Below are positions 6,659 through 39,412 of a stretch of 64,000 nucleotides of DNA, in pieces (positions within the stretch are counted from its first letter, which is position 1; each line of letters starts with the position of its first letter). The notes under the pieces were generated by a model, which made no database searches, was not told where the DNA came from, and saw only the letters and a list, made by a program, of their open reading frames with translations. The DNA is from a virus: positions 32,001 through 96,000 of IMG/VR virus record IMGVR_UViG_3300020383_000006; one strand, given 5' to 3'. Both the position numbers and the translations under genes were made by a program.

Positions 6659-7364
6659 GTGTTATATGCGGACACAAATTATTGTTAGGTATAGCGGTAT
6701 GAAGGGTTGCGTTTTTTACGGTCACACCGGATGCTAACAAATCCTCACAAACATAACGAAAAGAACGTACCCATGTTTCAGGGTTATCTGCGTTCCTTCT
6801 AAACTTTTTCTTATCGTGATCACCAAACCAATGGCGTTTACCAAAAGTGTGACCAAAATCATACCCAACTAAAATTATTTCTTTTGCACCAAAAAGATAA
6901 GCAAGATTAACAGCCATACAACCAGAATTCCCGTTGTGGTGAACCGTATCCACTCTACCGATACCTTTTCCATGTGTAAGTTTAACACCGTTAAATGGTT
7001 TAGAAAGTTTGAATCCCCAACGTTTCCAACTTTCTTTAGCAGATTTTACCACCCGTTCTTGAGTCCATAATTCAGTATGTTCATAAACTAAATCCCTGAC
7101 GCTAGGGTAATAGTGGTGCCACCAAGAATGGTCAGCTGAATATACTGCGTCAACCCAAGGCGCAAGTTGGTAATTATTAGAAACGGCTATAACTTTATAA
7201 CCGTTCTTATTTCTAAGTTCCTCAACTATACCAATTTGTTCTTTAGTTAAAGAAGGACCGGAAGCAATACAAATTACTTTTTCCCATCCTTCTTTTTCTA
7301 GAGGTTTAGAAAAGTGAGATTCCTCTACAACCATTTTCGTAAAATTCCTTAACTGCTTCGTCAA
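6642..7364 (-). CDS. DUF115/MptE-like (GT-A-like) protein
   Basis: CIASGPSL and GNSGCMAVNLAYLFGAKEIILVGYDF motifs; paralogous pattern to 4772..5443. Confidence 0.6.
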   Translation of the reverse strand: MTKQLRNFTKMVVEESHFSKPLEKEGWEKVICIASGPSLTKEQIGIVEELRNKNGYKVIAVSNNYQLAPWVDAVYSADHSWWHHYYPSVRDLVYEHTELWTQERVVKSAKESWKRWGFKLSKPFNGVKLTHGKGIGRVDTVHHNGNSGCMAVNLAYLFGAKEIILVGYDFGHTFGKRHWFGDHDKKKFRRNADNPETWVRSFRYVCEDLLASGVTVKNATLHTAIPNNNLCPHITLEELL

Positions 7365-8601
7365 CTATAATGTCTGACCTATTTATCGGGTTAATTAAAC
7401 CGAACCCTTCAATAGATTTGATACGGGATAAGGCAACATAAGTTTGACCATGGCAAAACGCCCCAGAAGAAATATCAACGACTGCATTTGGTATTGTTTG
7501 ACCTTGTGCTTTGTGGATAGTAATAGCCCAAGCAAGTTTCAGTGGATATTGTTTGAAAGTTCCTGCAATATTTGTACCCAGTTTGCCGTCTTTGATTTCA
7601 TAATCAATTTGTTCCCAAATATATTTTTCAACAAATACAGTTTCTTCAGTTTCTTCTAAAAGAACTTCAATTCGGTCATTTACGAAGCCTGTAACATAAC
7701 CAATTTGCCCGTTTTTATAATCAGAGGTATTAGCCGTGATAATAACTTTAGCACCGTATTTAAGACGAAGTTCTTCTTCTACGGGAGTTTGACCTTTGAA
7801 CCCGTATGATTTTTCACCATAGAAAACTTTTTCTTTCCCTTCAAGTTCAGAATAGTTTTGAGTATTGATACCGTTAGCTGTTTTATTAGTTGCACATAAG
7901 AAAACAGGATCAGTATCCAAAACATCAACCAAGTTTTTGTTGCCATGATAGTTAAAGTAATTGACTGATTCCTCATACCCTTCAGAAGCATTCCTGATTT
8001 TTAATAAATTAGAAATCATTTCTTGATCTGATTGGCGCATAATTTCATTTAATTCAATATAATTAAATCCTGCATCAGCCCAAGCTTCCCCACCAAAAGA
8101 ATAAGGGGAATCATACAATGAAAAATAAGTTGATTCTTCATTTCTTACTACAACTGGTGGTAATTGGTAAAAATCTCCTACAGTAATAACTTGTAACCCA
8201 CCAAAAGGTAGTTTATTTCCTCTAACTTTTTTAAGAATCCTGTCTATTGTAAATAGAACGTCATAACGAACCATTGAAATTTCATCAATAAGAATTCGTT
8301 TAACAGGGGAATGTTTACCAAAAAGCTGTACAACCTTTTTGTGTGGATTGTAAGCGTCTTTTGCTTGTAAAATGTGAAAAGGTAATTTGAAGGCAGAATG
8401 TATTGTCATTCCACCTACATTTAAAGCGGCAATCCCAGTTGGTGCAAGCACAACCGTTTCATCTGAAAAAAGACTAACTATTTTTCTCGAAACGACTGAT
8501 TTACCTACACCCCCAGGACCAGAAATGAACGTATTTTTTCCAAGGGAAACGTTCTGTATTGCTTTATTTTGGTTTTGATTTAAAATCATAATATAACACA
8601 C
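7306..8601 (-). CDS. PIF1/RecD-like SF1B DNA helicase
   Basis: GPGGVGKS, APTGIAA, IDEISM, GDFYQLPPV, TIHKAQG and YVALSR motifs. Confidence 0.9.
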   Translation of the reverse strand: MCYIMILNQNQNKAIQNVSLGKNTFISGPGGVGKSVVSRKIVSLFSDETVVLAPTGIAALNVGGMTIHSAFKLPFHILQAKDAYNPHKKVVQLFGKHSPVKRILIDEISMVRYDVLFTIDRILKKVRGNKLPFGGLQVITVGDFYQLPPVVVRNEESTYFSLYDSPYSFGGEAWADAGFNYIELNEIMRQSDQEMISNLLKIRNASEGYEESVNYFNYHGNKNLVDVLDTDPVFLCATNKTANGINTQNYSELEGKEKVFYGEKSYGFKGQTPVEEELRLKYGAKVIITANTSDYKNGQIGYVTGFVNDRIEVLLEETEETVFVEKYIWEQIDYEIKDGKLGTNIAGTFKQYPLKLAWAITIHKAQGQTIPNAVVDISSGAFCHGQTYVALSRIKSIEGFGLINPINRSDIIVDEAVKEFYENGCRGISLF

Positions 8602-10556: not shown

Positions 10557-11273
10557 TTAGCCTTCCCACTTAGAACCAATATTCATAGCAACCCAGAATG
10601 TTTTACCTGAACCGCTTTCTACTTTTGAAATTTTCTTAGAAACAATAGAAAAGTTTAAATCGCCTTCGCCTTCTAAAACACTAACGTTTTGGCTATCCAA
10701 TTTGTAGAACATTTGGAACGTTAAATCAGTTTCCATTAATTCAATAGAAAATTTATTTGTTTCGTTTTCATCGCCGCTATTTTTGTTAAACGCAGTGATT
10801 GAAACAGTTTCACCGTCAGCAATAAAACCAACGTATTCCAGCTTCATTGTTTTTGCTGCGTCCATAATAGAAGCAAATTGTGATTGAGTTACCTCTAATT
10901 CAATATCAGGATCACTTAAATCAGGCGTTTTTTCGGTATAAGAGCCTTTAACGAAATCAGGATCACTTTCCATATAACGGATTTTTTGTTTACCGTCATC
11001 AGATTTAATTAAAAGGTATTTGTCATTGGAAAAATCTAACGTAGGATCTTCAATGATAGAAGTCACTCGCAAAAACTCACCCAAGTCATAAATGTTAAAA
11101 TCACGAGGGAACTGATCTTCAAGTGGAGCATGAAGAAGTAAATTTGCAGAGTTAGTGCAAACTTTTAGTGTATCGCTATCAGCTTTCAAACGAACGCTTT
11201 GATTGACATCATAAGCACTTTTCAATGTCTCAATAGTAGGTTTGCTGATTTTCATAGTCATATCATCAGACAT
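10557..11273 (-). CDS. 45: sliding clamp gp45
   Basis: MKISKPTIETLK, FNIYDLGEFL; synteny 46-45-44. Confidence 0.88.
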   Translation of the reverse strand: MSDDMTMKISKPTIETLKSAYDVNQSVRLKADSDTLKVCTNSANLLLHAPLEDQFPRDFNIYDLGEFLRVTSIIEDPTLDFSNDKYLLIKSDDGKQKIRYMESDPDFVKGSYTEKTPDLSDPDIELEVTQSQFASIMDAAKTMKLEYVGFIADGETVSITAFNKNSGDENETNKFSIELMETDLTFQMFYKLDSQNVSVLEGEGDLNFSIVSKKISKVESGSGKTFWVAMNIGSKWEG

Positions 11274-14190: not shown

Positions 14191-14832
14191 TTAATTAAAT
14201 AGTAAAGCTGAATCAGTTTCTTCTTGTTCCTCAGAAACACCTTTTTTATTAAAATTGTTTTCTTCGTAAGTTTTTATGAATTGTTTCCTTGACGCAGTAA
14301 CCTCATTATTAAGGTCTTGTTGTTGGAGGTCACTTTCTATAACGTTGTCATCAGTCAGTGCCATGAATTCTTGAGCTTCATCAATTTTTTTGTATTTTAT
14401 ATAAAGTTGTTTACGTTCTTTTCTTAGTTGTTCAAGGAGAGCGTTGTTGATGATTGAAGTTAGGTATGCAAACGGATTATTGGATTTTTCTGGGTCAAAA
14501 CCATTACCGCGAATTGCTGCAGTCATTACTGCATTGGATATAAATTCTTCCTTCCACGATTCACTTGCCATTCGAGTAACTCTCCAAGAATTGCAACGAC
14601 GTTTTGCTATTTGTAAAATAGCCCTACCAATAACTTCAGGAAGAGGTGGTGCAGGTAGATCACGTTCATCATGCAGTAACTTTATTTTCCTATATTTTTT
14701 GTATGCTTCAAGGCATTGTTTGTTATCTACATAGTGAGCATTCTTTTGTTTTGTTTCTTTAAGTTTACCTTCTGAAACTAATAGTTCTTCTATTTCTTCT
14801 TCTGAATATATTCTTGATTGATTTTTAATCAT
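14191..14832 (-). CDS. 55: late-transcription sigma factor gp55
   Basis: HYVDNK, FDPEKSNNPFAYLT; synteny with 47. Confidence 0.9.
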   Translation of the reverse strand: MIKNQSRIYSEEEIEELLVSEGKLKETKQKNAHYVDNKQCLEAYKKYRKIKLLHDERDLPAPPLPEVIGRAILQIAKRRCNSWRVTRMASESWKEEFISNAVMTAAIRGNGFDPEKSNNPFAYLTSIINNALLEQLRKERKQLYIKYKKIDEAQEFMALTDDNVIESDLQQQDLNNEVTASRKQFIKTYEENNFNKKGVSEEQEETDSALLFN

Positions 14833-25471: not shown

Positions 25472-26698
25472 ATGTATAATTTGATTAAAGGTGAAAATTT
25501 TGATATTAAAGTTTGGAACAAAGATGTTCCAATGGAATCAGGTGTATTTGACCAAGTAAGAAACCTTGCTAAATTACAAGGCGTTCAGGCTGTCTCATTA
25601 ATGCCAGATGCTCATGTTGGCAAAGGGTCAACCGTAGGGTCAGTCATCGTAACTAAAAACGTTATAATTCCTGCTACAGTAGGTGTTGACATCGGTTGCG
25701 GTATGAATGCAATCCGGTTATCTTTAAAAGCTTCTGATTTACCTGAATCACTTACTCAAGTAAGGAACGAAGTAGAAAAAATGGTTCCAGTTGGTTTTGA
25801 CCAACATTCTGACCAACGTACTGGAATTAGTGCTCACAGAAATACTCGTTCAATGCTTAATCGTTATATGAGCAAATTAGAACTTGGGTTTAATGAAATT
25901 ACTAACAAACACGAAGATATTAGCAAAATGTCTAAAAACTTACCACAAAAAGTTCTTCAACAAATCGGGACTTTGGGTGGTGGTAACCATTTCATTGAAT
26001 TATGTATTGATGAAAACCAAGATGTTTGGGTAATGCTTCATTCAGGTTCTCGTGGTGTAGGTAACGCAATTGGTCGTTACTTTATTGAAAAAGCTAAAGA
26101 AGAAATTTTAAAATCAGGGTTACAAGTACCAGAAAAAGATTTATCTTATTTATCCCATGGTACAGATTTGTATCGTGATTATATTGATTCTGTTGGTTGG
26201 GCGCAAGAGTACGCTAAAACTAACCGCAAAGCAATGATGGAATTGGTTCTTACTGCTTTGAAAAGATATTTACCGAATTTCATTGTTACGAAAGAAGCGA
26301 TTAATTGTCACCACAACTATATTTCTAAAGAAGTTCATATGTCTGAAGAAGTATATGTTACCCGTAAAGGTGCAGTTTCAGCGCAAGCTGGTGAATTAGG
26401 AATTATTCCTGGTTCTATGGGTGCTAAATCGTATATCGTTCGTGGTAAAGGTAACGTTGATTCATTTTGTTCTTGTTCACATGGCGCTGGTCGTGTAATG
26501 TCAAGAAGTAAAGCTAAGAAAATGATTTCTATTGAGGATCATTTAAAAGCAACTGATGGCGTTGATTGTCGTAAAGATAAAGGTGTATTAGATGAATCAC
26601 CTTTAGCGTATAAAGATATTGACGCAGTAATGAGTTCACAAGATGACTTGGTTGAGGTAGTTCATACTCTTAAACAAGTTATGTGTGTAAAAGGTTAA
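25472..26698 (+). CDS. rtcB: RNA 2',3'-cyclic phosphate/5'-OH ligase RtcB
   Basis: MPDAHVGKG, VGVDIGCG, GTLGGGNHFIE, HSGSRG, HHNY, SHGAGR and C-terminal VKG motifs. Confidence 0.97.
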   Translation: MYNLIKGENFDIKVWNKDVPMESGVFDQVRNLAKLQGVQAVSLMPDAHVGKGSTVGSVIVTKNVIIPATVGVDIGCGMNAIRLSLKASDLPESLTQVRNEVEKMVPVGFDQHSDQRTGISAHRNTRSMLNRYMSKLELGFNEITNKHEDISKMSKNLPQKVLQQIGTLGGGNHFIELCIDENQDVWVMLHSGSRGVGNAIGRYFIEKAKEEILKSGLQVPEKDLSYLSHGTDLYRDYIDSVGWAQEYAKTNRKAMMELVLTALKRYLPNFIVTKEAINCHHNYISKEVHMSEEVYVTRKGAVSAQAGELGIIPGSMGAKSYIVRGKGNVDSFCSCSHGAGRVMSRSKAKKMISIEDHLKATDGVDCRKDKGVLDESPLAYKDIDAVMSSQDDLVEVVHTLKQVMCVKG

Positions 26699-29013: not shown

Positions 29014-29562
29014 ATGAGGGTTTTAAAATTAGACAAGGCAGGTACTCCAGAAAAATGGATATCTAGAGAAGATGCGGCTGTTGCGTATGCTAAAGACCAA
29101 GTCCTTTGGGAACTTGGTAATTCTGAAGCTATGTTCGGCGGTATGAATAGAAACCTTGGAATTCAAAGCCACATTGATATCGCGCCTATTATTGCATGCG
29201 ATTCACTAAGTAAATTAAGAGATAAAACAACATTTAGACTTTCTAATGCCGCTTTATTCAAAAGAGACAATTTCCAATGTATGTACTGTGGAAGGCATTT
29301 TAATAGAGGTAATTTGACTCGAGACCATATAACTCCAAGAGTACAAGGTGGTCCGGATATTTGGGAAAACGTTATTACTGCTTGTGTGCGTTGTAATACA
29401 CATAAAGGTGGTAGAACGCCTGAAGAAGCTAATATGGAATTATTAGCTATTCCTTTTGCACCGAACTTATTTGAATTTATGTACCTTAAAAGTCATAAAA
29501 TATTAGCGGATCAAATGGAATTTCTATCTAGTAAATTTAGTGGTCAGAGGGTTTGGCAGTGA
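29014..29562 (+). CDS. HNH endonuclease
   Basis: RDNFQCMYCG..TRDHITPRVQGG..WENVITACVRCNTHKG. Confidence 0.92.
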   Translation: MRVLKLDKAGTPEKWISREDAAVAYAKDQVLWELGNSEAMFGGMNRNLGIQSHIDIAPIIACDSLSKLRDKTTFRLSNAALFKRDNFQCMYCGRHFNRGNLTRDHITPRVQGGPDIWENVITACVRCNTHKGGRTPEEANMELLAIPFAPNLFEFMYLKSHKILADQMEFLSSKFSGQRVWQ

Positions 29563-34588: not shown

Positions 34589-34831
34589 ATGCTAAATCTA
34601 AACGAATTTAAACAAATAGAAACTGACGTAGCTATGCTTGAAGAAAAAATTGATGAGTCAGTCTATGAAAAAAGTGAGACATTTGAACTGACTGAAAATG
34701 AAAACCTAACAACTACATTTAAACTGTACGACGCTGATGACAATTGTATCTTTGAAACTGAAGTTGAAGATTACTACACCGCCGAACAATACCTAAAAGA
34801 AAGATTTGACATCAGTGGTGAAGAAGAATAA
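34589..34831 (+). CDS. acidic hypothetical protein
   Basis: AGGAG RBS before MLNLNE. Confidence 0.6.
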   Translation: MLNLNEFKQIETDVAMLEEKIDESVYEKSETFELTENENLTTTFKLYDADDNCIFETEVEDYYTAEQYLKERFDISGEEE

Positions 34832-34897
34832 AATAGATTTTTAATTTTCTTTTTAATCTATTATAATAAATCCTTCTTAAGAATTTCGGAGTTTTAA

Positions 34898-36289
34898 ATG
34901 GACAAATATATTGATGGTGTGAGAGTCATCGTAGCTGAAGAACACCATGATTGTGAACACCTACTTGGTAAATTTTTAGATGAAAGTCATTATGACGTTT
35001 TAATAGACGAAGATTGTGATTTTTACGCGCCACCAGAAAACACTTTATTCGGTGTAGAAGAAACCTCAGAAGAAAAATGTATTTTCAAACTGCGCAAAGG
35101 TTTTTTCAGTATGGAAGAACAACGTGGCGCATATGAAGGGTTACGTGATGCGGCAGTTGCTTCTAACAACCGTGGAATTGCTGCTGGCGACCGTACTGAA
35201 ATGACGGGCAACCGAGTTTTCGTTACTGAACGTCATTTACGTATTTTAGACATGATGATGAATCCTGCTGGTGCTGTTATTGATGATGCCTTTACGGTAG
35301 CTGATGCGGTAGCTGATAAGTCTTGGGGTAATCCTAATTCTAAAAAAGGTGAAGCATGGATTATTCGAGTTGTTGGGGATAACTTTGATTTTGAAAAATG
35401 GGCTGAAGAAACAGTAAAATTATCCCCCAGTGAAATGAATAAGAAAGCACGTGAACTTTCAAAAGGCGTTTCTACTACTACATACGCAAATGAAGTTCAT
35501 TCCGGTATTGCTGGTTGGTTTGACCGTTACCCAAGAATTCCTTTTGGGCGAGCAACTTCTTACACAGCAAACAACCCTGAAAAATTTGCTAAATCTTACC
35601 CTTTTCTACAAAAACTTTCGGATGGATTTTCTAAATTTTTGCCTGAACGTTTCGTTAAACAAAAGAAATGTGCCGACTCATTAGACCCTGCTTTTGTCGT
35701 ACCTGAAACGCCGTTTACTACCCTGACGGTTAATAAAACGTTCCGTACAGCAGCTCACAGGGACGCTGGTGACCTGAAAAAAGGGTTCTCTAACCTTAGC
35801 GTGATCACTAATAAAGAAAAGTGTTACACTGGCGGTTATTTAGTTTTACCTGAGTTCCGTGTAGCTGTAAACATTCGTCCTGGTGACTTATTACTTATTA
35901 ATAACCATGACGGGGTTCATGGTAATACGCCTATTGAAATTGATGATGATGGTGAGCGCGTTTCAGTTGTTTGTTATTTCCGTGAAAATATGTTAGAATT
36001 AGGTTCTAAACCATATGAAGATGCAAGAGCCAAATTTGTTGAACAAAGAAGAAATGATAAAAACCACCCAGAGTGGCGTCCATTGTGGAACGGTATTAGT
36101 CCAGGAATGTTTGAGACTGATGAATGGTACAAATTTCTTTACAACGAAATTGGTGAAGAAGAATTATTAAAATACCATCCAAGGGCAAAAGGTAGCATTG
36201 AAGAATTTGAATCTTGTACTAAAAGAAAGGTACATGGGGATGATGTTTGTAATGGATGTAACAAAATATGTAATGGTCGAGGTGAATAA
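34898..36289 (+). CDS. TET/JBP-family Fe(II)/2-oxoglutarate dioxygenase
   Basis: SGIAGWFDRYPRIPFGRAT, FTTLTVNKTFRTAAHRDAGD (HxD), HGNTPI (H), RVSVVCYFRE (R). Confidence 0.85.
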   Translation: MDKYIDGVRVIVAEEHHDCEHLLGKFLDESHYDVLIDEDCDFYAPPENTLFGVEETSEEKCIFKLRKGFFSMEEQRGAYEGLRDAAVASNNRGIAAGDRTEMTGNRVFVTERHLRILDMMMNPAGAVIDDAFTVADAVADKSWGNPNSKKGEAWIIRVVGDNFDFEKWAEETVKLSPSEMNKKARELSKGVSTTTYANEVHSGIAGWFDRYPRIPFGRATSYTANNPEKFAKSYPFLQKLSDGFSKFLPERFVKQKKCADSLDPAFVVPETPFTTLTVNKTFRTAAHRDAGDLKKGFSNLSVITNKEKCYTGGYLVLPEFRVAVNIRPGDLLLINNHDGVHGNTPIEIDDDGERVSVVCYFRENMLELGSKPYEDARAKFVEQRRNDKNHPEWRPLWNGISPGMFETDEWYKFLYNEIGEEELLKYHPRAKGSIEEFESCTKRKVHGDDVCNGCNKICNGRGE

Positions 36290-37113
36290 TGTTAATTTGT
36301 ATACCAACGTATAAGCGCGAAGAAAACCAAAAATGTTATGAACGTATGCCCGACGAAATTAAACGTCGGGTTTTATTGGCTACTCATTCTGATGAAGTAG
36401 AAAACCTTAAAAAAGCTAACCCAGAAGCAAATGTTGTGGATATTGGAGTCACTGACGGCATCGCTGACGTGAGACAAAGAATACTTAACTACGCAAAATC
36501 ACAAAATGAAGAAAAAGTTTTTATAATGGATGATTCTTGCACATTCAAGAAAAGAGTTAAAATGAAACTTACTGAAATGGGCGCTCAAGATTGGGAAGAA
36601 ATGATTGAAAGGGTTTCAGAAAGGCTAGATGAATACCCTATGGTCGGAATTTCTGACCAAGCCGGAAATAACCGCGTTGAGAAACCGGAATTAGAAAACC
36701 AACGTTCATACAGTTGTTATGGTATCAACGTAGAATTTTTTAAAGAAAACGGCATAAGATTTGATGCTATGTATCAAGAAGATAATGATATCAAGTTTTA
36801 TGAAGATTTTTACGTTATACTGAAATTATTGACTTCAGGGTTTAAGAACTTGGTTATCTATGAATACGCCTTTTCACACGCACACGGCAAAAAGGGCGGT
36901 AACAGTGTATTAAGAAGTAATAATACACATAAAAAATCAATAGATTCTTTGAAAACGTTTTTTCCTAAGTTTGTTGATGTCGTAAAGAAGGAAAACCCAT
37001 CTTGGAAAGCAGGTTTAAATGATGAAGAAAACTTTAGATGGGACGTGAAAATTTCTTGGAAAAAGGCTTTTGAATATGGACAATCTAAAGTAGAAAGCGT
37101 TTCTTTATTTTGA
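36289..37113 (+). CDS. TET-associated GT-A glycosyltransferase
   Basis: ICIPTYKR, FIMDD, EDF and KGGNS motifs; coupled to the dioxygenase. Confidence 0.8.
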   Translation: MLICIPTYKREENQKCYERMPDEIKRRVLLATHSDEVENLKKANPEANVVDIGVTDGIADVRQRILNYAKSQNEEKVFIMDDSCTFKKRVKMKLTEMGAQDWEEMIERVSERLDEYPMVGISDQAGNNRVEKPELENQRSYSCYGINVEFFKENGIRFDAMYQEDNDIKFYEDFYVILKLLTSGFKNLVIYEYAFSHAHGKKGGNSVLRSNNTHKKSIDSLKTFFPKFVDVVKKENPSWKAGLNDEENFRWDVKISWKKAFEYGQSKVESVSLF

Positions 37114-37123
37114 GGAAGACTTT

Positions 37124-38173
37124 ATGAAATATGAGAAAAGGTTAGTCGTTGATTTTGATGACACACTATTTTTTACTAAAAACCGTGATTGGGAAAATGC
37201 GGAACCCAATTTAGAATTAATAGAAAAGATTAACGGTCTTTATGAAGAAGGCTGGAGAGTAGATATTTTTACTGCTAGAGGTTCAATATCTTGTGACAGT
37301 AGGGAACAAGCAAAGGAAAAATACCTTAATGGTATGTTGCGGTTGCTTGAAAAATATAACGTTATGTATCATGAAATATCTTTTGAAAAACCTTTGGCCG
37401 CTTATTACATTGATGACAAATCTATCACGCCAGAAGAATTTATTAAGAAAGATTTTAAGCAATTACAAGGCGGTCTATCAGGTAGTGATATTTATACTGA
37501 TGGTGAACAAGTCCATAAAACAGATGATAACAGCCATAATGTTGTTGAATGGTATAACGCCACGAATAATATATTAAATACGCCTGAGATACATAGGGTT
37601 GTTGGTAACACTGTTTCTATGGAGTATATTGAACATAATGAATCTTTTTTTGAATCTAATGTTTATTTTGCGTTAGCGTTAATCCAAGAGTCATTAGATT
37701 CAATGAGAAAATTGAAACCGATAAACAATTTAAGGTTTTCTGATTATAAGAAAAGAATTTTAACTAACCACCTTAAACCAGCTTTAGAAAATGATTCACT
37801 AAGTAAACAACAAAAAAAGGTTTTGTTGATAACATATGAAAATTTATCCCTTATTGACGTAAATCCATCATTTTCCCATGGCGATTTCGGTATAAAAAAT
37901 ATGCTTTTTAACGAAGACAAGAAGCTTTATTTGATAGACCCAATCCCACAAACATTCGGTTCTTTAGAAATAGATGTTGCGAAATTCATAGCTTCTATGT
38001 ACATAAATGAATATAATGAGCAACTAATTAATACCTCATTAAAAACCCTTTGTACATTCAATGGTCTAGAGCTGAGTTTAATTAATAAACTAATCAGTTC
38101 AGAATTAATGAGAGTCGTGAAATACCACCCTGACCCTGAAAAGATCGTGGAGCTTATATCGAATGTTTATTGA
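37124..38173 (+). CDS. HAD phosphatase fused to an APH/choline-kinase-like domain
   Basis: VVDFDDTL, FTAR, KP..YYIDDK; GGLSG, HGDFGIKNML, LIDP. Confidence 0.8.
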   Translation: MKYEKRLVVDFDDTLFFTKNRDWENAEPNLELIEKINGLYEEGWRVDIFTARGSISCDSREQAKEKYLNGMLRLLEKYNVMYHEISFEKPLAAYYIDDKSITPEEFIKKDFKQLQGGLSGSDIYTDGEQVHKTDDNSHNVVEWYNATNNILNTPEIHRVVGNTVSMEYIEHNESFFESNVYFALALIQESLDSMRKLKPINNLRFSDYKKRILTNHLKPALENDSLSKQQKKVLLITYENLSLIDVNPSFSHGDFGIKNMLFNEDKKLYLIDPIPQTFGSLEIDVAKFIASMYINEYNEQLINTSLKTLCTFNGLELSLINKLISSELMRVVKYHPDPEKIVELISNVY

Positions 38174-38627
38174 TAGGAAATCGTTGTCTGAGAAATTAAA
38201 TAAAGAGATGGATGAGGTTAAGATAGGTTTTACTTGTTCCACCTTTGATTTATTTCATGCTGGACACGTTGTTATGTTAGAAGAAGCCAAAACTATGTGT
38301 GATTACCTTATAGTGGGGCTTCTTTCTGACCCGACAATAGATAGACCAGATTCTAAAAATAAACCTATACAAAGTATGTTTGAGCGATATATTCAAGTTT
38401 CTTCTTGTAAATATGTCGACGAAGTTATACCTTTCCAAACTGAACAAGAAATTATCGATATAATTTTAACCATACAACCTGATGTGAGGGTTGTTGGGGA
38501 AGAATATAAAGGTGAAAATTTTACTGGAAACGATTTGTGTTTCGTACATTTTAATAAAAGAAGACACTCTTTTTCTTCAACTGATTTAAGAAAAAGAGTT
38601 TTTGAAAATGAAAATAAAGGTGAATAA
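38163..38627 (+). CDS. TagD-like (glycerol-3-phosphate-type) cytidylyltransferase
   Basis: STFDLFHAGH (HxGH), YVDEVIP, RRHSFSST. Confidence 0.88.
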   Translation: MFIDRKSLSEKLNKEMDEVKIGFTCSTFDLFHAGHVVMLEEAKTMCDYLIVGLLSDPTIDRPDSKNKPIQSMFERYIQVSSCKYVDEVIPFQTEQEIIDIILTIQPDVRVVGEEYKGENFTGNDLCFVHFNKRRHSFSSTDLRKRVFENENKGE

Positions 38628-38631
38628 AACT

Positions 38632-39336
38632 ATGTCATTAGAAATTACATTTCCACTGTATAATTATTTTTTAAAGCAAGTGATTGATTGGAACCATGCA
38701 GCAAATAACCCACCAGCAACAAAAATGGGCGCTAGAAAACTTCAAATTATGCGCCAAGCTGAATATACTCGCTCTGAAGTTCAAGAAACCATGGACGCAG
38801 TATTTGTTCATGATTTAAAAGAAATTGTTGATGGTGTTTGTGACGTTTTCGTTACGGCTGGTTATATGGCACATTTGCAATCACATAAACCCGAAGATGC
38901 TGGATTGATGTCCTTCAAACAAGGGTTTTTACCTAAAACCCAAATGGAACTTATTCCTCAGTTGTTTGCACTAAGGGAAGATTGTAACGTATTTGGTAAC
39001 ATTACTCACGAAAAAGTACAAATGTTACTGTTATCATTGGTCTCAGTTTTTCGAACTACGTTTGACATTGAAAAACCCGTTTCTAAAGTAGAAAGTTTTG
39101 TACAAGAAGTATTGGATTCTAATAATTCTAAGTTTATACCTTTGCAAGAGTATGAGAAATATAAAGTCCTTCATAATGAATACGTTAATAAGAAGTATGA
39201 AGGTAAATTTGAAAACATTGTTCCTGTATACACTAAACTTGGAACCCGTGACGTCGTAGTTTTCCGAGCGGATAATGGCGAAGGTAAAATTCTTAAACCT
39301 TCAACGTTCCGTGAACCGAAATTCGACCTTTCATAA
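38632..39336 (+). CDS. MazG-like NTP pyrophosphohydrolase
   Basis: EVQE..EIVDGVCD, SNNSKF, GKILKP. Confidence 0.75.
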   Translation: MSLEITFPLYNYFLKQVIDWNHAANNPPATKMGARKLQIMRQAEYTRSEVQETMDAVFVHDLKEIVDGVCDVFVTAGYMAHLQSHKPEDAGLMSFKQGFLPKTQMELIPQLFALREDCNVFGNITHEKVQMLLLSLVSVFRTTFDIEKPVSKVESFVQEVLDSNNSKFIPLQEYEKYKVLHNEYVNKKYEGKFENIVPVYTKLGTRDVVVFRADNGEGKILKPSTFREPKFDLS

Positions 39337-39412
39337 ATTCCACTTTAAATAAGAAATGAAACGGGGTATATTATTGCCCCGTTCCTTTTAATTCTATACA
39401 GGGATTACGAAT

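Follow-up and report, generated by a model that had tools for sequence, protein, structure and literature searches.

A TET/JBP dioxygenase, a TAGT glycosyltransferase and putative sugar-donor genes form a candidate thymine-hypermodification operon in an uncultured marine T4-like phage

The DNA analyzed here (the window, 64,000 nucleotides) comprises bases 32001-96000 of IMG/VR viral contig IMGVR_UViG_3300020383_000006, a 145.5-kb record that is estimated to be ~90% complete and derives from an uncultured marine T4-like myovirus. Directly 5' of its DNA polymerase gene lies a cassette of five genes that encode, in order, a TET/JBP dioxygenase, a TAGT-family glycosyltransferase (GT), a fusion of a HAD phosphatase with an APH-like kinase, an HxGH-class nucleotidyltransferase, and a MazG-like protein (genes 1 to 5, Table 1). 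We propose that this early-transcribed operon acts on replicated phage DNA and hypermodifies its thymine, with TET-made 5-hydroxymethyluracil (5hmU) receiving a sugar supplied by the operon's own donor genes. We assign this reading a probability of roughly 0.6.

In the proposed route the phage would make ordinary dTTP by means of ThyX and dCMP deaminase and incorporate thymine, whose 5-methyl group would then be hydroxylated in DNA by the TET/JBP dioxygenase to yield 5hmU. The APH-like kinase domain would add a second phosphate, at the anomeric position, to a sugar phosphate from the host, the fused HAD domain would take off the distal phosphate to leave a sugar-1-phosphate, and the HxGH nucleotidyltransferase would turn this product into a nucleoside diphosphate (NDP)-sugar. 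The TAGT, which has a GT-A fold, would move the sugar to the 5hmU hydroxyl to give a base-J-like O-glycosyl-5hmU, and it probably rides the gp45 sliding clamp through a polymerase-like C-terminal tail. Domain assignments, folds, catalytic motifs, gene order and the lack of methylases and hydroxymethylases are observations, whereas thymine as the substrate, the sequence of steps, the nature of the donor, docking on the clamp and a role against restriction are our inference. A more specific suggestion, that virion DNA bears an undescribed base consisting of 5hmU with an O-linked sugar other than glucose, such as a heptose, built from a phage-made donor by a clamp-docked GT behind the fork, is tentative and in our estimate falls somewhat short of even odds.

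The original prediction, made from the sequence of the window, was of a new DNA hypermodification pathway. The reading as a post-replicative base-modification cassette with a dedicated donor is supported, but pathways of this kind have been described before. The logic of hypermodification is already published, as are phage thymine dioxygenases and their GT partners (2026; PMC13229309), the trio of HAD/APH enzyme, cytidylyltransferase and GT (2023; bioRxiv 10.1101/2023.12.21.572611), and the succession of kinase, HAD phosphatase and nucleotidyltransferase (PMC13326640). New here are the combination of genes and a GT tail that matches the clamp-binding tail of the polymerase.

The five open reading frames (ORFs) are all on the plus strand and tightly packed, with junctions that are, in order, a 1-nt overlap, a 10-nt gap, an 11-nt overlap, and an overlap of ~20 nt. 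The gene for the gp43-type family-B DNA polymerase (PolB) begins 76 nt past the end of gene 5. This arrangement, the ORFs, their coordinates and their domains are nearly as first claimed. The promoter-like site 5' of gene 1 is the top match in the region and a consensus match only; the total count of sigma-70-like sites in the region is not above that of shuffled sequences. Bounded by this site and by a terminator-like hairpin 3' of gene 5, the cassette is an apparent single transcription unit. The same cassette, with a 100% identical TAGT, occurs on at least six contigs from independent samples, one of them from Tara Oceans. Its assembly in independent samples indicates that it is real, not an assembly artefact, and marine. 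A DNA-level search of 50,697 phage records with the cassette returned short matches only, all to the nucleotidyltransferase gene.

The gene 1 protein matches Pfam family PF12851 with 81.2 bits (cut-off 34.9). An AlphaFold (AF2) model computed from 28 orthologues has a predicted local distance difference test (pLDDT) score of 83.6 and adopts a double-stranded beta-helix that is nearest to solved TET enzymes. Foldseek returned TET2, CcTet and NgTET1 at ~1e-9 (best 1.5e-9), and structural alignment (VIA) gave a Z-score of 20.2 for TET2 (residues 1-379, 268 aligned, root mean square deviation 3.5) and of 18.8 for NgTET1. The iron-binding HxD...H triad of H287, D289 and H341 is unchanged across the 28 orthologues. 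We considered residues 1-200 as a separate N-terminal domain and rejected this, as the structural alignment makes residues 1-385 one TET-type catalytic domain. Full-length orthologues with 46-57% identity occur in 77 IMG/VR loci, and orthologues are also present in the cultured T4-like phages DLP6, Cr30 and C48C1. The 'SNF2 DNA repair protein' label on the orthologues of DLP6, Cr30 and S-CBWM1 was rejected as a mislabel. We interpret the gene 1 protein as a putative thymine dioxygenase that would make 5hmU in DNA.

The gene 2 protein scores 46 bits against PF20691 (cut-off 27.5), and its AF2 model (pLDDT 94.9) has a GT-A fold nearest to the wall-teichoic-acid glycosyltransferases RmlT, TarS and TarP, which together with WrtF were returned by Foldseek at ~3e-7. 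Its acidic motif, D81 and D82, is unchanged across orthologues; relatives were gathered via the TET loci and by protein search. TAGT is reported to be related to the base-J glucosyltransferase (PMC7968844), and the protein encoded here is predicted to put a sugar on the 5hmU hydroxyl in DNA. The route parallels that of base J: in kinetoplastids JBP1/2, which are TET/JBP enzymes, oxidize thymine to 5hmU, which is then O-glycosylated by JGT, a TAGT-related GT (PMC7968844). Base J depends on the UDP-glucose of general metabolism and serves transcription control at specific loci, whereas the window encodes a dedicated donor pathway, its sugar is probably not glucose, and its likely role is protection of the viral genome.

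The acceptor had been predicted to be either hydroxymethyluracil, as in base J, or hydroxymethylcytosine (hmC), and the former is now favored. Profiles for cytosine C5-methyltransferases (C5-MT, PF00145), ThyA-type hydroxymethylases (PF00303), PF01555 and PF02086 found nothing in the whole 145.5-kb contig (~90% complete): it has no C5-, N6/N4- or Dam-type methylase and no ThyA-type hydroxymethylase. The earlier observation that the window has no recognizable dCMP hydroxymethylase or C5-MT is thus confirmed and extends to the whole contig, including the part outside the window, where a search for a C5-MT had been called for. Genes for ThyX and dCMP deaminase are present on the contig. Their presence, together with the failure to find methylases or a ThyA-type enzyme, suggests that ordinary thymine is made and incorporated.

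Related genomes point in the same direction. We surveyed the gene content of the 44 longest IMG/VR contigs with a TET orthologue. A C5-MT was not found in 40 of them, two 100% complete genomes included, nor in the complete genomes of DLP6, Cr30 and C48C1, all of which carry an orthologous TET. None of the 44 encodes a ThyA-type hydroxymethylase, and 12, again including both complete genomes, encode an amino-acid:DNA transferase (AADT). AADTs and P-loop 5hmU DNA kinases act on 5hmU in DNA (PMC13229309); in the AADT genomes that lack a ThyA-type enzyme, this leaves the TET as the sole candidate for supplying 5hmU. A maximum-likelihood tree puts the window TET as sister to that of contig L037 (support 0.999), where the TET gene is followed by genes for a GATase, an amidoligase, a GNAT, an AADT and P-loop kinase3. 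Another part of the tree has almost identical TETs from L064, which has an AADT kit, L056, with a GT-B and a nucleotidyltransferase, and L050, with a TAGT and an AfhE-like set. That near-identical TETs serve AADT, GT-B and TAGT cassettes implies one common TET product. In Cr30 (L002:10700-14500), tblastn finds AADT- and P-loop-kinase-like sequences in a 17-kb locus around the TET gene, and an inositol-1-phosphate synthase is annotated ~4 kb 3' of it.

Thymine dioxygenases of phages with GT partners have been established experimentally (PMC13229309), and thymine oxidation by phages has also been described elsewhere (PMC8256090). The enzymes 5mYOX97, 5mYOX89 and 5mYOX176/ParB176 (O'Toole et al., PMC13229309) resemble the window TET in being TET/JBP proteins without an adjacent C5-MT and with GT or AADT/P-loop kinase partners. 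They act on thymine post-replicatively, as we propose for the window TET. The window differs from these systems in that no ParB was found, in that TET orthologues bear a polymerase-type clamp tail, and in that the genome is that of a T4-like myovirus. ParB (PF02195) was detected neither in the window's contig nor in the 44 related contigs; if it is a thymine dioxygenase, the window TET would be of a ParB-less type. Taken together, thymine to 5hmU to glycosyl-5hmU, a base-J-like sequence of steps, is likely the best reading of the route.

We then consider how the donor may be made. Residues 5-114 of the gene 3 protein form a phosphatase of the HAD-IIIA/EcbF type with an intact DxDxT motif; the best PDB matches are 1xpj (4e-16) and 9iqw (1e-14), and the DFDDT motif is invariant. 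So are HGDxxxxN and IDP in the C-terminal part, which are motifs typical of small-molecule kinases like APH and choline kinase. The kinase part matched choline kinase weakly in a profile search (0.004), with weak matches also to fructosamine-3-kinase and methylthioribose kinase. The HAD part is 37-40% identical to HAD proteins of the arabinosylating phages DLP3 and 92A1, and 1xpj is the best PDB match for both. A literature search on the EcbF/BcbF HAD family (TIGR01689, 1XPJ, 9IQW) found nothing pertinent. The 'phosphoheptose isomerase' label that AfhF-type HAD homologues carry in many RefSeq T4-like phages was rejected as a mislabel.

The gene 4 protein has an HAGH motif and scores better against rfaE_dom_II (2.8e-24) than against TagD (1.4e-15) in NCBIfam, both matches lying below the equivalog cut-offs. 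In the PDB its matches are ethanolamine-phosphate cytidylyltransferase (ECT, 1.4e-22) and TagD (7e-15). It is about equally near to HldE domain II, which adenylylates heptose-1-phosphate, and to TagD/ECT, so that these scores single out no nucleotide. We infer that gene 4 makes an NDP-activated donor, with ADP or CDP as the candidate nucleotides. Of the dedicated CDP-linked donor that had been predicted, the supply of an activated donor to the TET-associated GT by the kinase/phosphatase and the nucleotidyltransferase holds up, while the 'CDP' part is not established because the family includes the ATP-using HldE besides CTP users.

Two characterized systems inform the order of steps. In arabinosyl-5-hydroxycytosine phages (RB69, DLP3, HY126), AfhE, a kinase and pyrophosphorylase, and AfhF, a HAD phosphatase, are reported to convert arabinose-5-phosphate to the 1,5-bisphosphate, the 1-phosphate and UDP-arabinose (PMC13326640). 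This is the same succession of anomeric kinase, HAD phosphatase and nucleotidyltransferase. Those phages join the kinase to a MurU/LicC-type pyrophosphorylase, encode an arabinose-5-phosphate isomerase and use a ThyA homologue to make the base before replication. In the window, by contrast, the kinase partner is the HAD domain and the nucleotidyltransferase belongs to the HxGH class; neither an isomerase nor a ThyA homologue was found on the contig. The three activities of the AfhE/AfhF scheme, rearranged here, suggest a route from sugar-omega-phosphate through the 1,omega-bisphosphate and the sugar-1-phosphate to the NDP-sugar. The second system is contig 53, from a metavirome (Pyle et al., bioRxiv 10.1101/2023.12.21.572611), in which a HAD domain fused to an APH-like kinase adjoins a CTP_transf-like enzyme, with a GT and with a 5mYOX nearby. 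When reconstituted in E. coli, its HAD/APH enzyme, cytidylyltransferase and GT were all required to place one or two heptoses on 5-hydroxymethylcytosine (5hmC). Its GT is a GT-B, similar to T4 beta-GT, its acceptor is 5hmC and a C5-MT is present; the window has a GT-A TAGT, no methylase that we could find, and a TET of a thymine-linked clade. Based on the shared domain architecture and the HldE-like score, heptose is our leading guess for the sugar. Relatives with a DLP6-type TET (L050/L054:4100-9350) encode an HxGH nucleotidyltransferase, an AfhE-like NTP_transferase-kinase of 522 amino acids and a stand-alone HAD, and thus have two nucleotidyltransferases per GT.

The donor could instead be a CDP-alcohol (CDP-glycerol, -ribitol, -ethanolamine or -choline) made by a Kennedy- or teichoic-type pathway, with the phospho-alcohol attached to the hydroxymethyl base. 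The best solved-structure matches of gene 4, the ethanolamine-phosphate and glycerol-3-phosphate cytidylyltransferases, favor this scheme, as do choline kinases as the best solved matches of the kinase profile. However, the transferase combines the GT-A fold of sugar transferases with a conserved DD motif and does not have the fold of a TagF/LicD-type phosphotransferase. The HAD phosphatase would have no role in such a scheme, yet has a defined one in the sugar bisphosphate route, rfaE domain II, the heptose-1-phosphate adenylyltransferase, outscores TagD, and the analogous published trio yielded heptose (bioRxiv 10.1101/2023.12.21.572611). The sugar-transferase fold and the roleless HAD phosphatase make a CDP-alcohol unlikely. 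The CDP-polyol donor suggested originally is not supported on the same ground, as the fold is that of the sugar transferases RmlT, TarS and TarP rather than of a phospho-alcohol transferase.

The nearest relatives of the donor genes lie in 32 marine T4-like contigs (HAD/APH 50-54% and nucleotidyltransferase 70-77% identical) in which neither TET nor TAGT was found. These contigs carry a T4 gp42-like dCMP hydroxymethylase (E 5e-74), a dCMP deaminase, two GT-like genes and a C5-MT-like gene, and their polymerases are only 34% identical to the window PolB. The disparity between 70-77% identity for the nucleotidyltransferase and 34% for PolB suggests that phages exchange the donor module whole. 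In L028:8642-14882 (and in L004-L035) the order is gp42-like dCMP hydroxymethylase, dCMP deaminase, HAD/APH, a GT-like gene of 305 amino acids, nucleotidyltransferase, a GT-B-like gene of 419 amino acids, and the C5-MT-like gene. This cluster resembles a system for glycosylating hmC that encodes the donor pathway as well, plus an additional methylase that is puzzling. The 305-amino-acid gene was examined as a hidden TET and rejected by BLASTP and PF12851; its Atlas neighbors point to another GT. Among the 77 TET loci, a TAGT is present in 13, a nucleotidyltransferase (50-58% identity) in 23 and a stand-alone HAD in 10, and the full HAD/APH fusion in none. The gene content of the relatives marks the window operon as a new combination, found in 0 of these 77, that joins a TET of the thymine type to a TAGT and to a donor module whose other occurrences are in hmC phages.

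This distribution bears on a further explanation, that TET and TAGT use a common host UDP-sugar and that the HAD/APH enzyme and nucleotidyltransferase form an unrelated metabolic module, for example for remodeling of host surface glycans. The pair does occur without TET or TAGT in the 32 contigs above, and the fusion is missing from many TET+TAGT relatives. In those 32 contigs, though, the pair again sits amid DNA-modification genes (dCMP hydroxymethylase, two GT-like, C5-MT-like), the window genes form one apparent transcription unit, with overlaps or a 10-nt gap between neighbors, and the published trio was needed for a DNA adduct. We regard an unrelated module as improbable.

A link between the TAGT and replication is suggested by its C-terminus. 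The TAGT ends in ...SVSLF and PolB in ...EEEQVSLF; this sharing of the last four residues is one of only two such pairs among 185 ORFs, and only PolB, the TAGT and a PIF1/Dda-like helicase end in SLF. In related contigs the PolB tail reads (S/T)LE(D/E)FF(G/S), and the same tail is found on 39 of 42 distinct TET orthologues and on every TAGT orthologue. T4 gp43, gp55 and gp33 bind gp45 via interchangeable hydrophobic-acidic C-termini (PMC2988020). As in T4, the peptide is short, hydrophobic and at the extreme C-terminus, being near-identical in PolB and TAGT here and in PolB, TET and TAGT of relatives; it differs in that the predicted tail sits on DNA-modifying enzymes and in that the window TET has a Cys-rich end instead. 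We suggest that the TAGT tail probably docks on the gp45 clamp. The polymerase-type tails of TAGT and TET orthologues support action on DNA at or behind the fork, and the clamp tail may play a part like that of ParB, which activates other thymine dioxygenases of phages.

In the window TET the clamp-type tail is replaced by a Cys-rich C-terminus (residues 434-463, window 36200-36289) with the pattern C-x10-C-x2-C-x3-C and a His, which it has in common with its sister in L037 (CNGCNKIC...). Model confidence in this tail is low (pLDDT ~62-67, and ~40 at the extreme end); it is possibly a zinc knuckle. The helicase (Table 1) ends in ...GISLF, so that a clamp 'toolbelt' may include it, and the gp55-like sigma factor ends in ...ALLFN.

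Several observations weigh against our proposal. The DNA of this phage is known from its genes alone, not from chemistry, and ~10% of the genome is unseen. Dual thymine/5-methylcytosine (5mC) enzymes exist, such as TET89 (PMC8256090), and selectivity is not readable from sequence. A C5-MT lies between PolB and TET in 4 of the 44 contigs (the L093-L096 group, of the TET+TAGT type). The window's own TET is without a clamp-type tail. On the donor side, the GT is a GT-A, not the GT-B of the reconstituted heptose system, and the likeness to contig 53 is one of described architecture. Searches of the contig for GmhA, arabinose-5-phosphate isomerase and a SIS domain found none, which leaves the host to supply the sugar phosphate; heptose-7-phosphate is one that it could provide. 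L050-type relatives carry a gene-4-like nucleotidyltransferase in addition to an AfhE-like enzyme, and this makes the part played by the HxGH enzyme harder to define.

The first of these points are shared by the alternative that the TET acts on 5mC made by the host or by an unrecognized phage methylase, giving glycosyl-5hmC as in C5-MT/5mYOX/GT clusters. All phage GT pathways reconstituted so far act on 5hmC (bioRxiv 10.1101/2023.12.21.572611), and the donor module has its nearest relatives in hmC-type phages with a T4 gp42-like dCMP hydroxymethylase; the four methylase-bearing contigs and the unseen portion of the genome also leave room for this alternative. Against it, the contig is without a DNA methylase of any class, no methylase occurs in five complete genomes with a TET orthologue, and the window TET is nested among TETs linked to AADTs and 5hmU kinases. 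Nor is a neighboring methylase diagnostic, since clade C2 thymine dioxygenases also adjoin cytosine methylases (PMC13229309). We consider a 5mC substrate to have only an outside chance.

A cultured phage for comparison is DLP6, whose TET and TAGT are 51% and 54% identical to those of the window, and in which a HAD gene and a large unannotated gene adjoin. DLP6 DNA is listed as restriction-enzyme resistant (PMC8228603; 18-enzyme panel, PMC5349666). In public annotation the DLP6 TAGT and its neighbors are labelled 'hypothetical'. One might also argue that DNA is not the target at all and that, for example, RNA or a small molecule is the substrate of the dioxygenase and a protein or glycan that of the GT. 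The TAGT relative GREB1 glycosylates a protein (PMC7968844), and this phage is known from its sequence only. Such a reading is very hard to reconcile with a fold nearest to the DNA-acting TET2, NgTET1 and CcTet, a position inside the replication module, polymerase-type clamp tails on TET and TAGT orthologues, and the restriction resistance of DLP6 DNA.

Gene 5 appears to have less to do with the modification. Its protein has no Pfam match above cut-off (MazG 13 bits, cut-off 22). An exhaustive HMMER search with it gave 135 representatives, and a family profile of 41 members matches E. coli MazG 3crc at 1.3e-4; 10 of these 41 homologues are assigned to PRA-PH and 7 to MazG. In the acidic motif (ExxE...ExxD) E59, E62 and D81 are invariant and E74 and D77 nearly so, and its language-model (Atlas) neighbors are PRA-PH clusters (0.94). 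The description 'MazG-like' is therefore sound at the superfamily level, given the match of the family profile to 3crc and the conserved acidic motif. Gene 5 is probably co-transcribed with the other four, as it overlaps gene 4 and precedes the terminator-like hairpin. However, L037 has a 32%-identical homologue directly 5' of PolB even though its modification cassette is of quite another kind; gene 5 therefore looks like part of the replication module, co-transcribed with the cassette and no more. The MazG genes of DLP6 and Cr30 are unrelated to gene 5 and located elsewhere. If modification follows replication, no canonical deoxynucleoside triphosphate (dNTP) has to be kept out of DNA; given this and the L037 comparison, the idea that the MazG-like enzyme polices the dNTP pool is not supported. 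Its link to the modification is weak.

If the proposal is true, the operon would be a viral counterpart of base J with a rarer sugar, and one portable donor module would serve phages that make the acceptor differently, as pre-replicative hmC or as TET-made 5hmU. The polymerase-like tail of the GT suggests a simple way to restrict modification to new phage DNA. DNA of this kind resists restriction enzymes and can introduce bias when marine viromes are sequenced or cloned. As tools for site-directed DNA glycosylation, the enzymes are candidates too.

Table 1. Features of the cassette and of other genes in the window (window positions).
Feature	Position	Strand	Evidence and remarks
Promoter-like site, sigma-70 type, TTGACA-17-TAAAAT	34806..34834	+	64 nt 5' of TET start; 11/12 consensus positions
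Gene 1, TET/JBP (5mYOX) Fe(II)/2-oxoglutarate dioxygenase, 463 aa	34898..36289	+	PF12851 E 6e-23
Gene 2, TAGT-family glycosyltransferase predicted to act on DNA, 274 aa, GT-A fold	36289..37113	+	PF20691 E 8e-12; phrog_842 E 1e-50
Gene 3, HAD phosphatase (aa 1-115)/APH-choline-kinase-like kinase (~aa 190-340) fusion, 349 aa	37124..38173	+	TIGR01689 E 7.5e-14; motifs
Gene 4, HxGH cytidylyltransferase-family nucleotidyltransferase, 154 aa	38163..38627	+	PF01467 E 3e-16
Gene 5, MazG/PRA-PH-superfamily all-alpha pyrophosphohydrolase-like protein, 242-244 aa	38602..39336 (other callers: start 38608)	+	phrog_671 E 1e-20
Terminator-like hairpin between gene 5 and PolB gene	39360..39383	+	9-bp stem then T-rich tail; pattern match only
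gp43-type family-B DNA polymerase, 855 aa	39413..41980	+	PF00136, PF03104, phrog_262 E 4e-259
gp45 sliding clamp	10557..11273	-	tblastn with DLP6 and Cr30 clamps: 29-30% identity, E 2e-26 and 9e-21
PIF1/Dda-like helicase	7306..8601	-	
gp55-like sigma factor	14191..14832	-	
RtcB RNA ligase	25472..26698	+	
HNH endonuclease	29014..29562	+	
Protein with Gad2 domain (PF26128), 317 aa	32914..33867	+	existing annotation of identical contigs

The remainder of the contig is that of a T4-like myovirus: it carries gp43, gp45, gp44/62, RegA, a gp55-like sigma factor, and Dda-like and gp41-like helicases, and the gp44, gp62 and regA genes adjoin that of gp45. Genes for an RtcB RNA ligase and an HNH endonuclease lie in the early region 5' of the cassette. 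The Gad2 gene is two genes 5' of the cassette and, adjoining the modification operon, may be a counter-defence gene of the anti-Gabija type.

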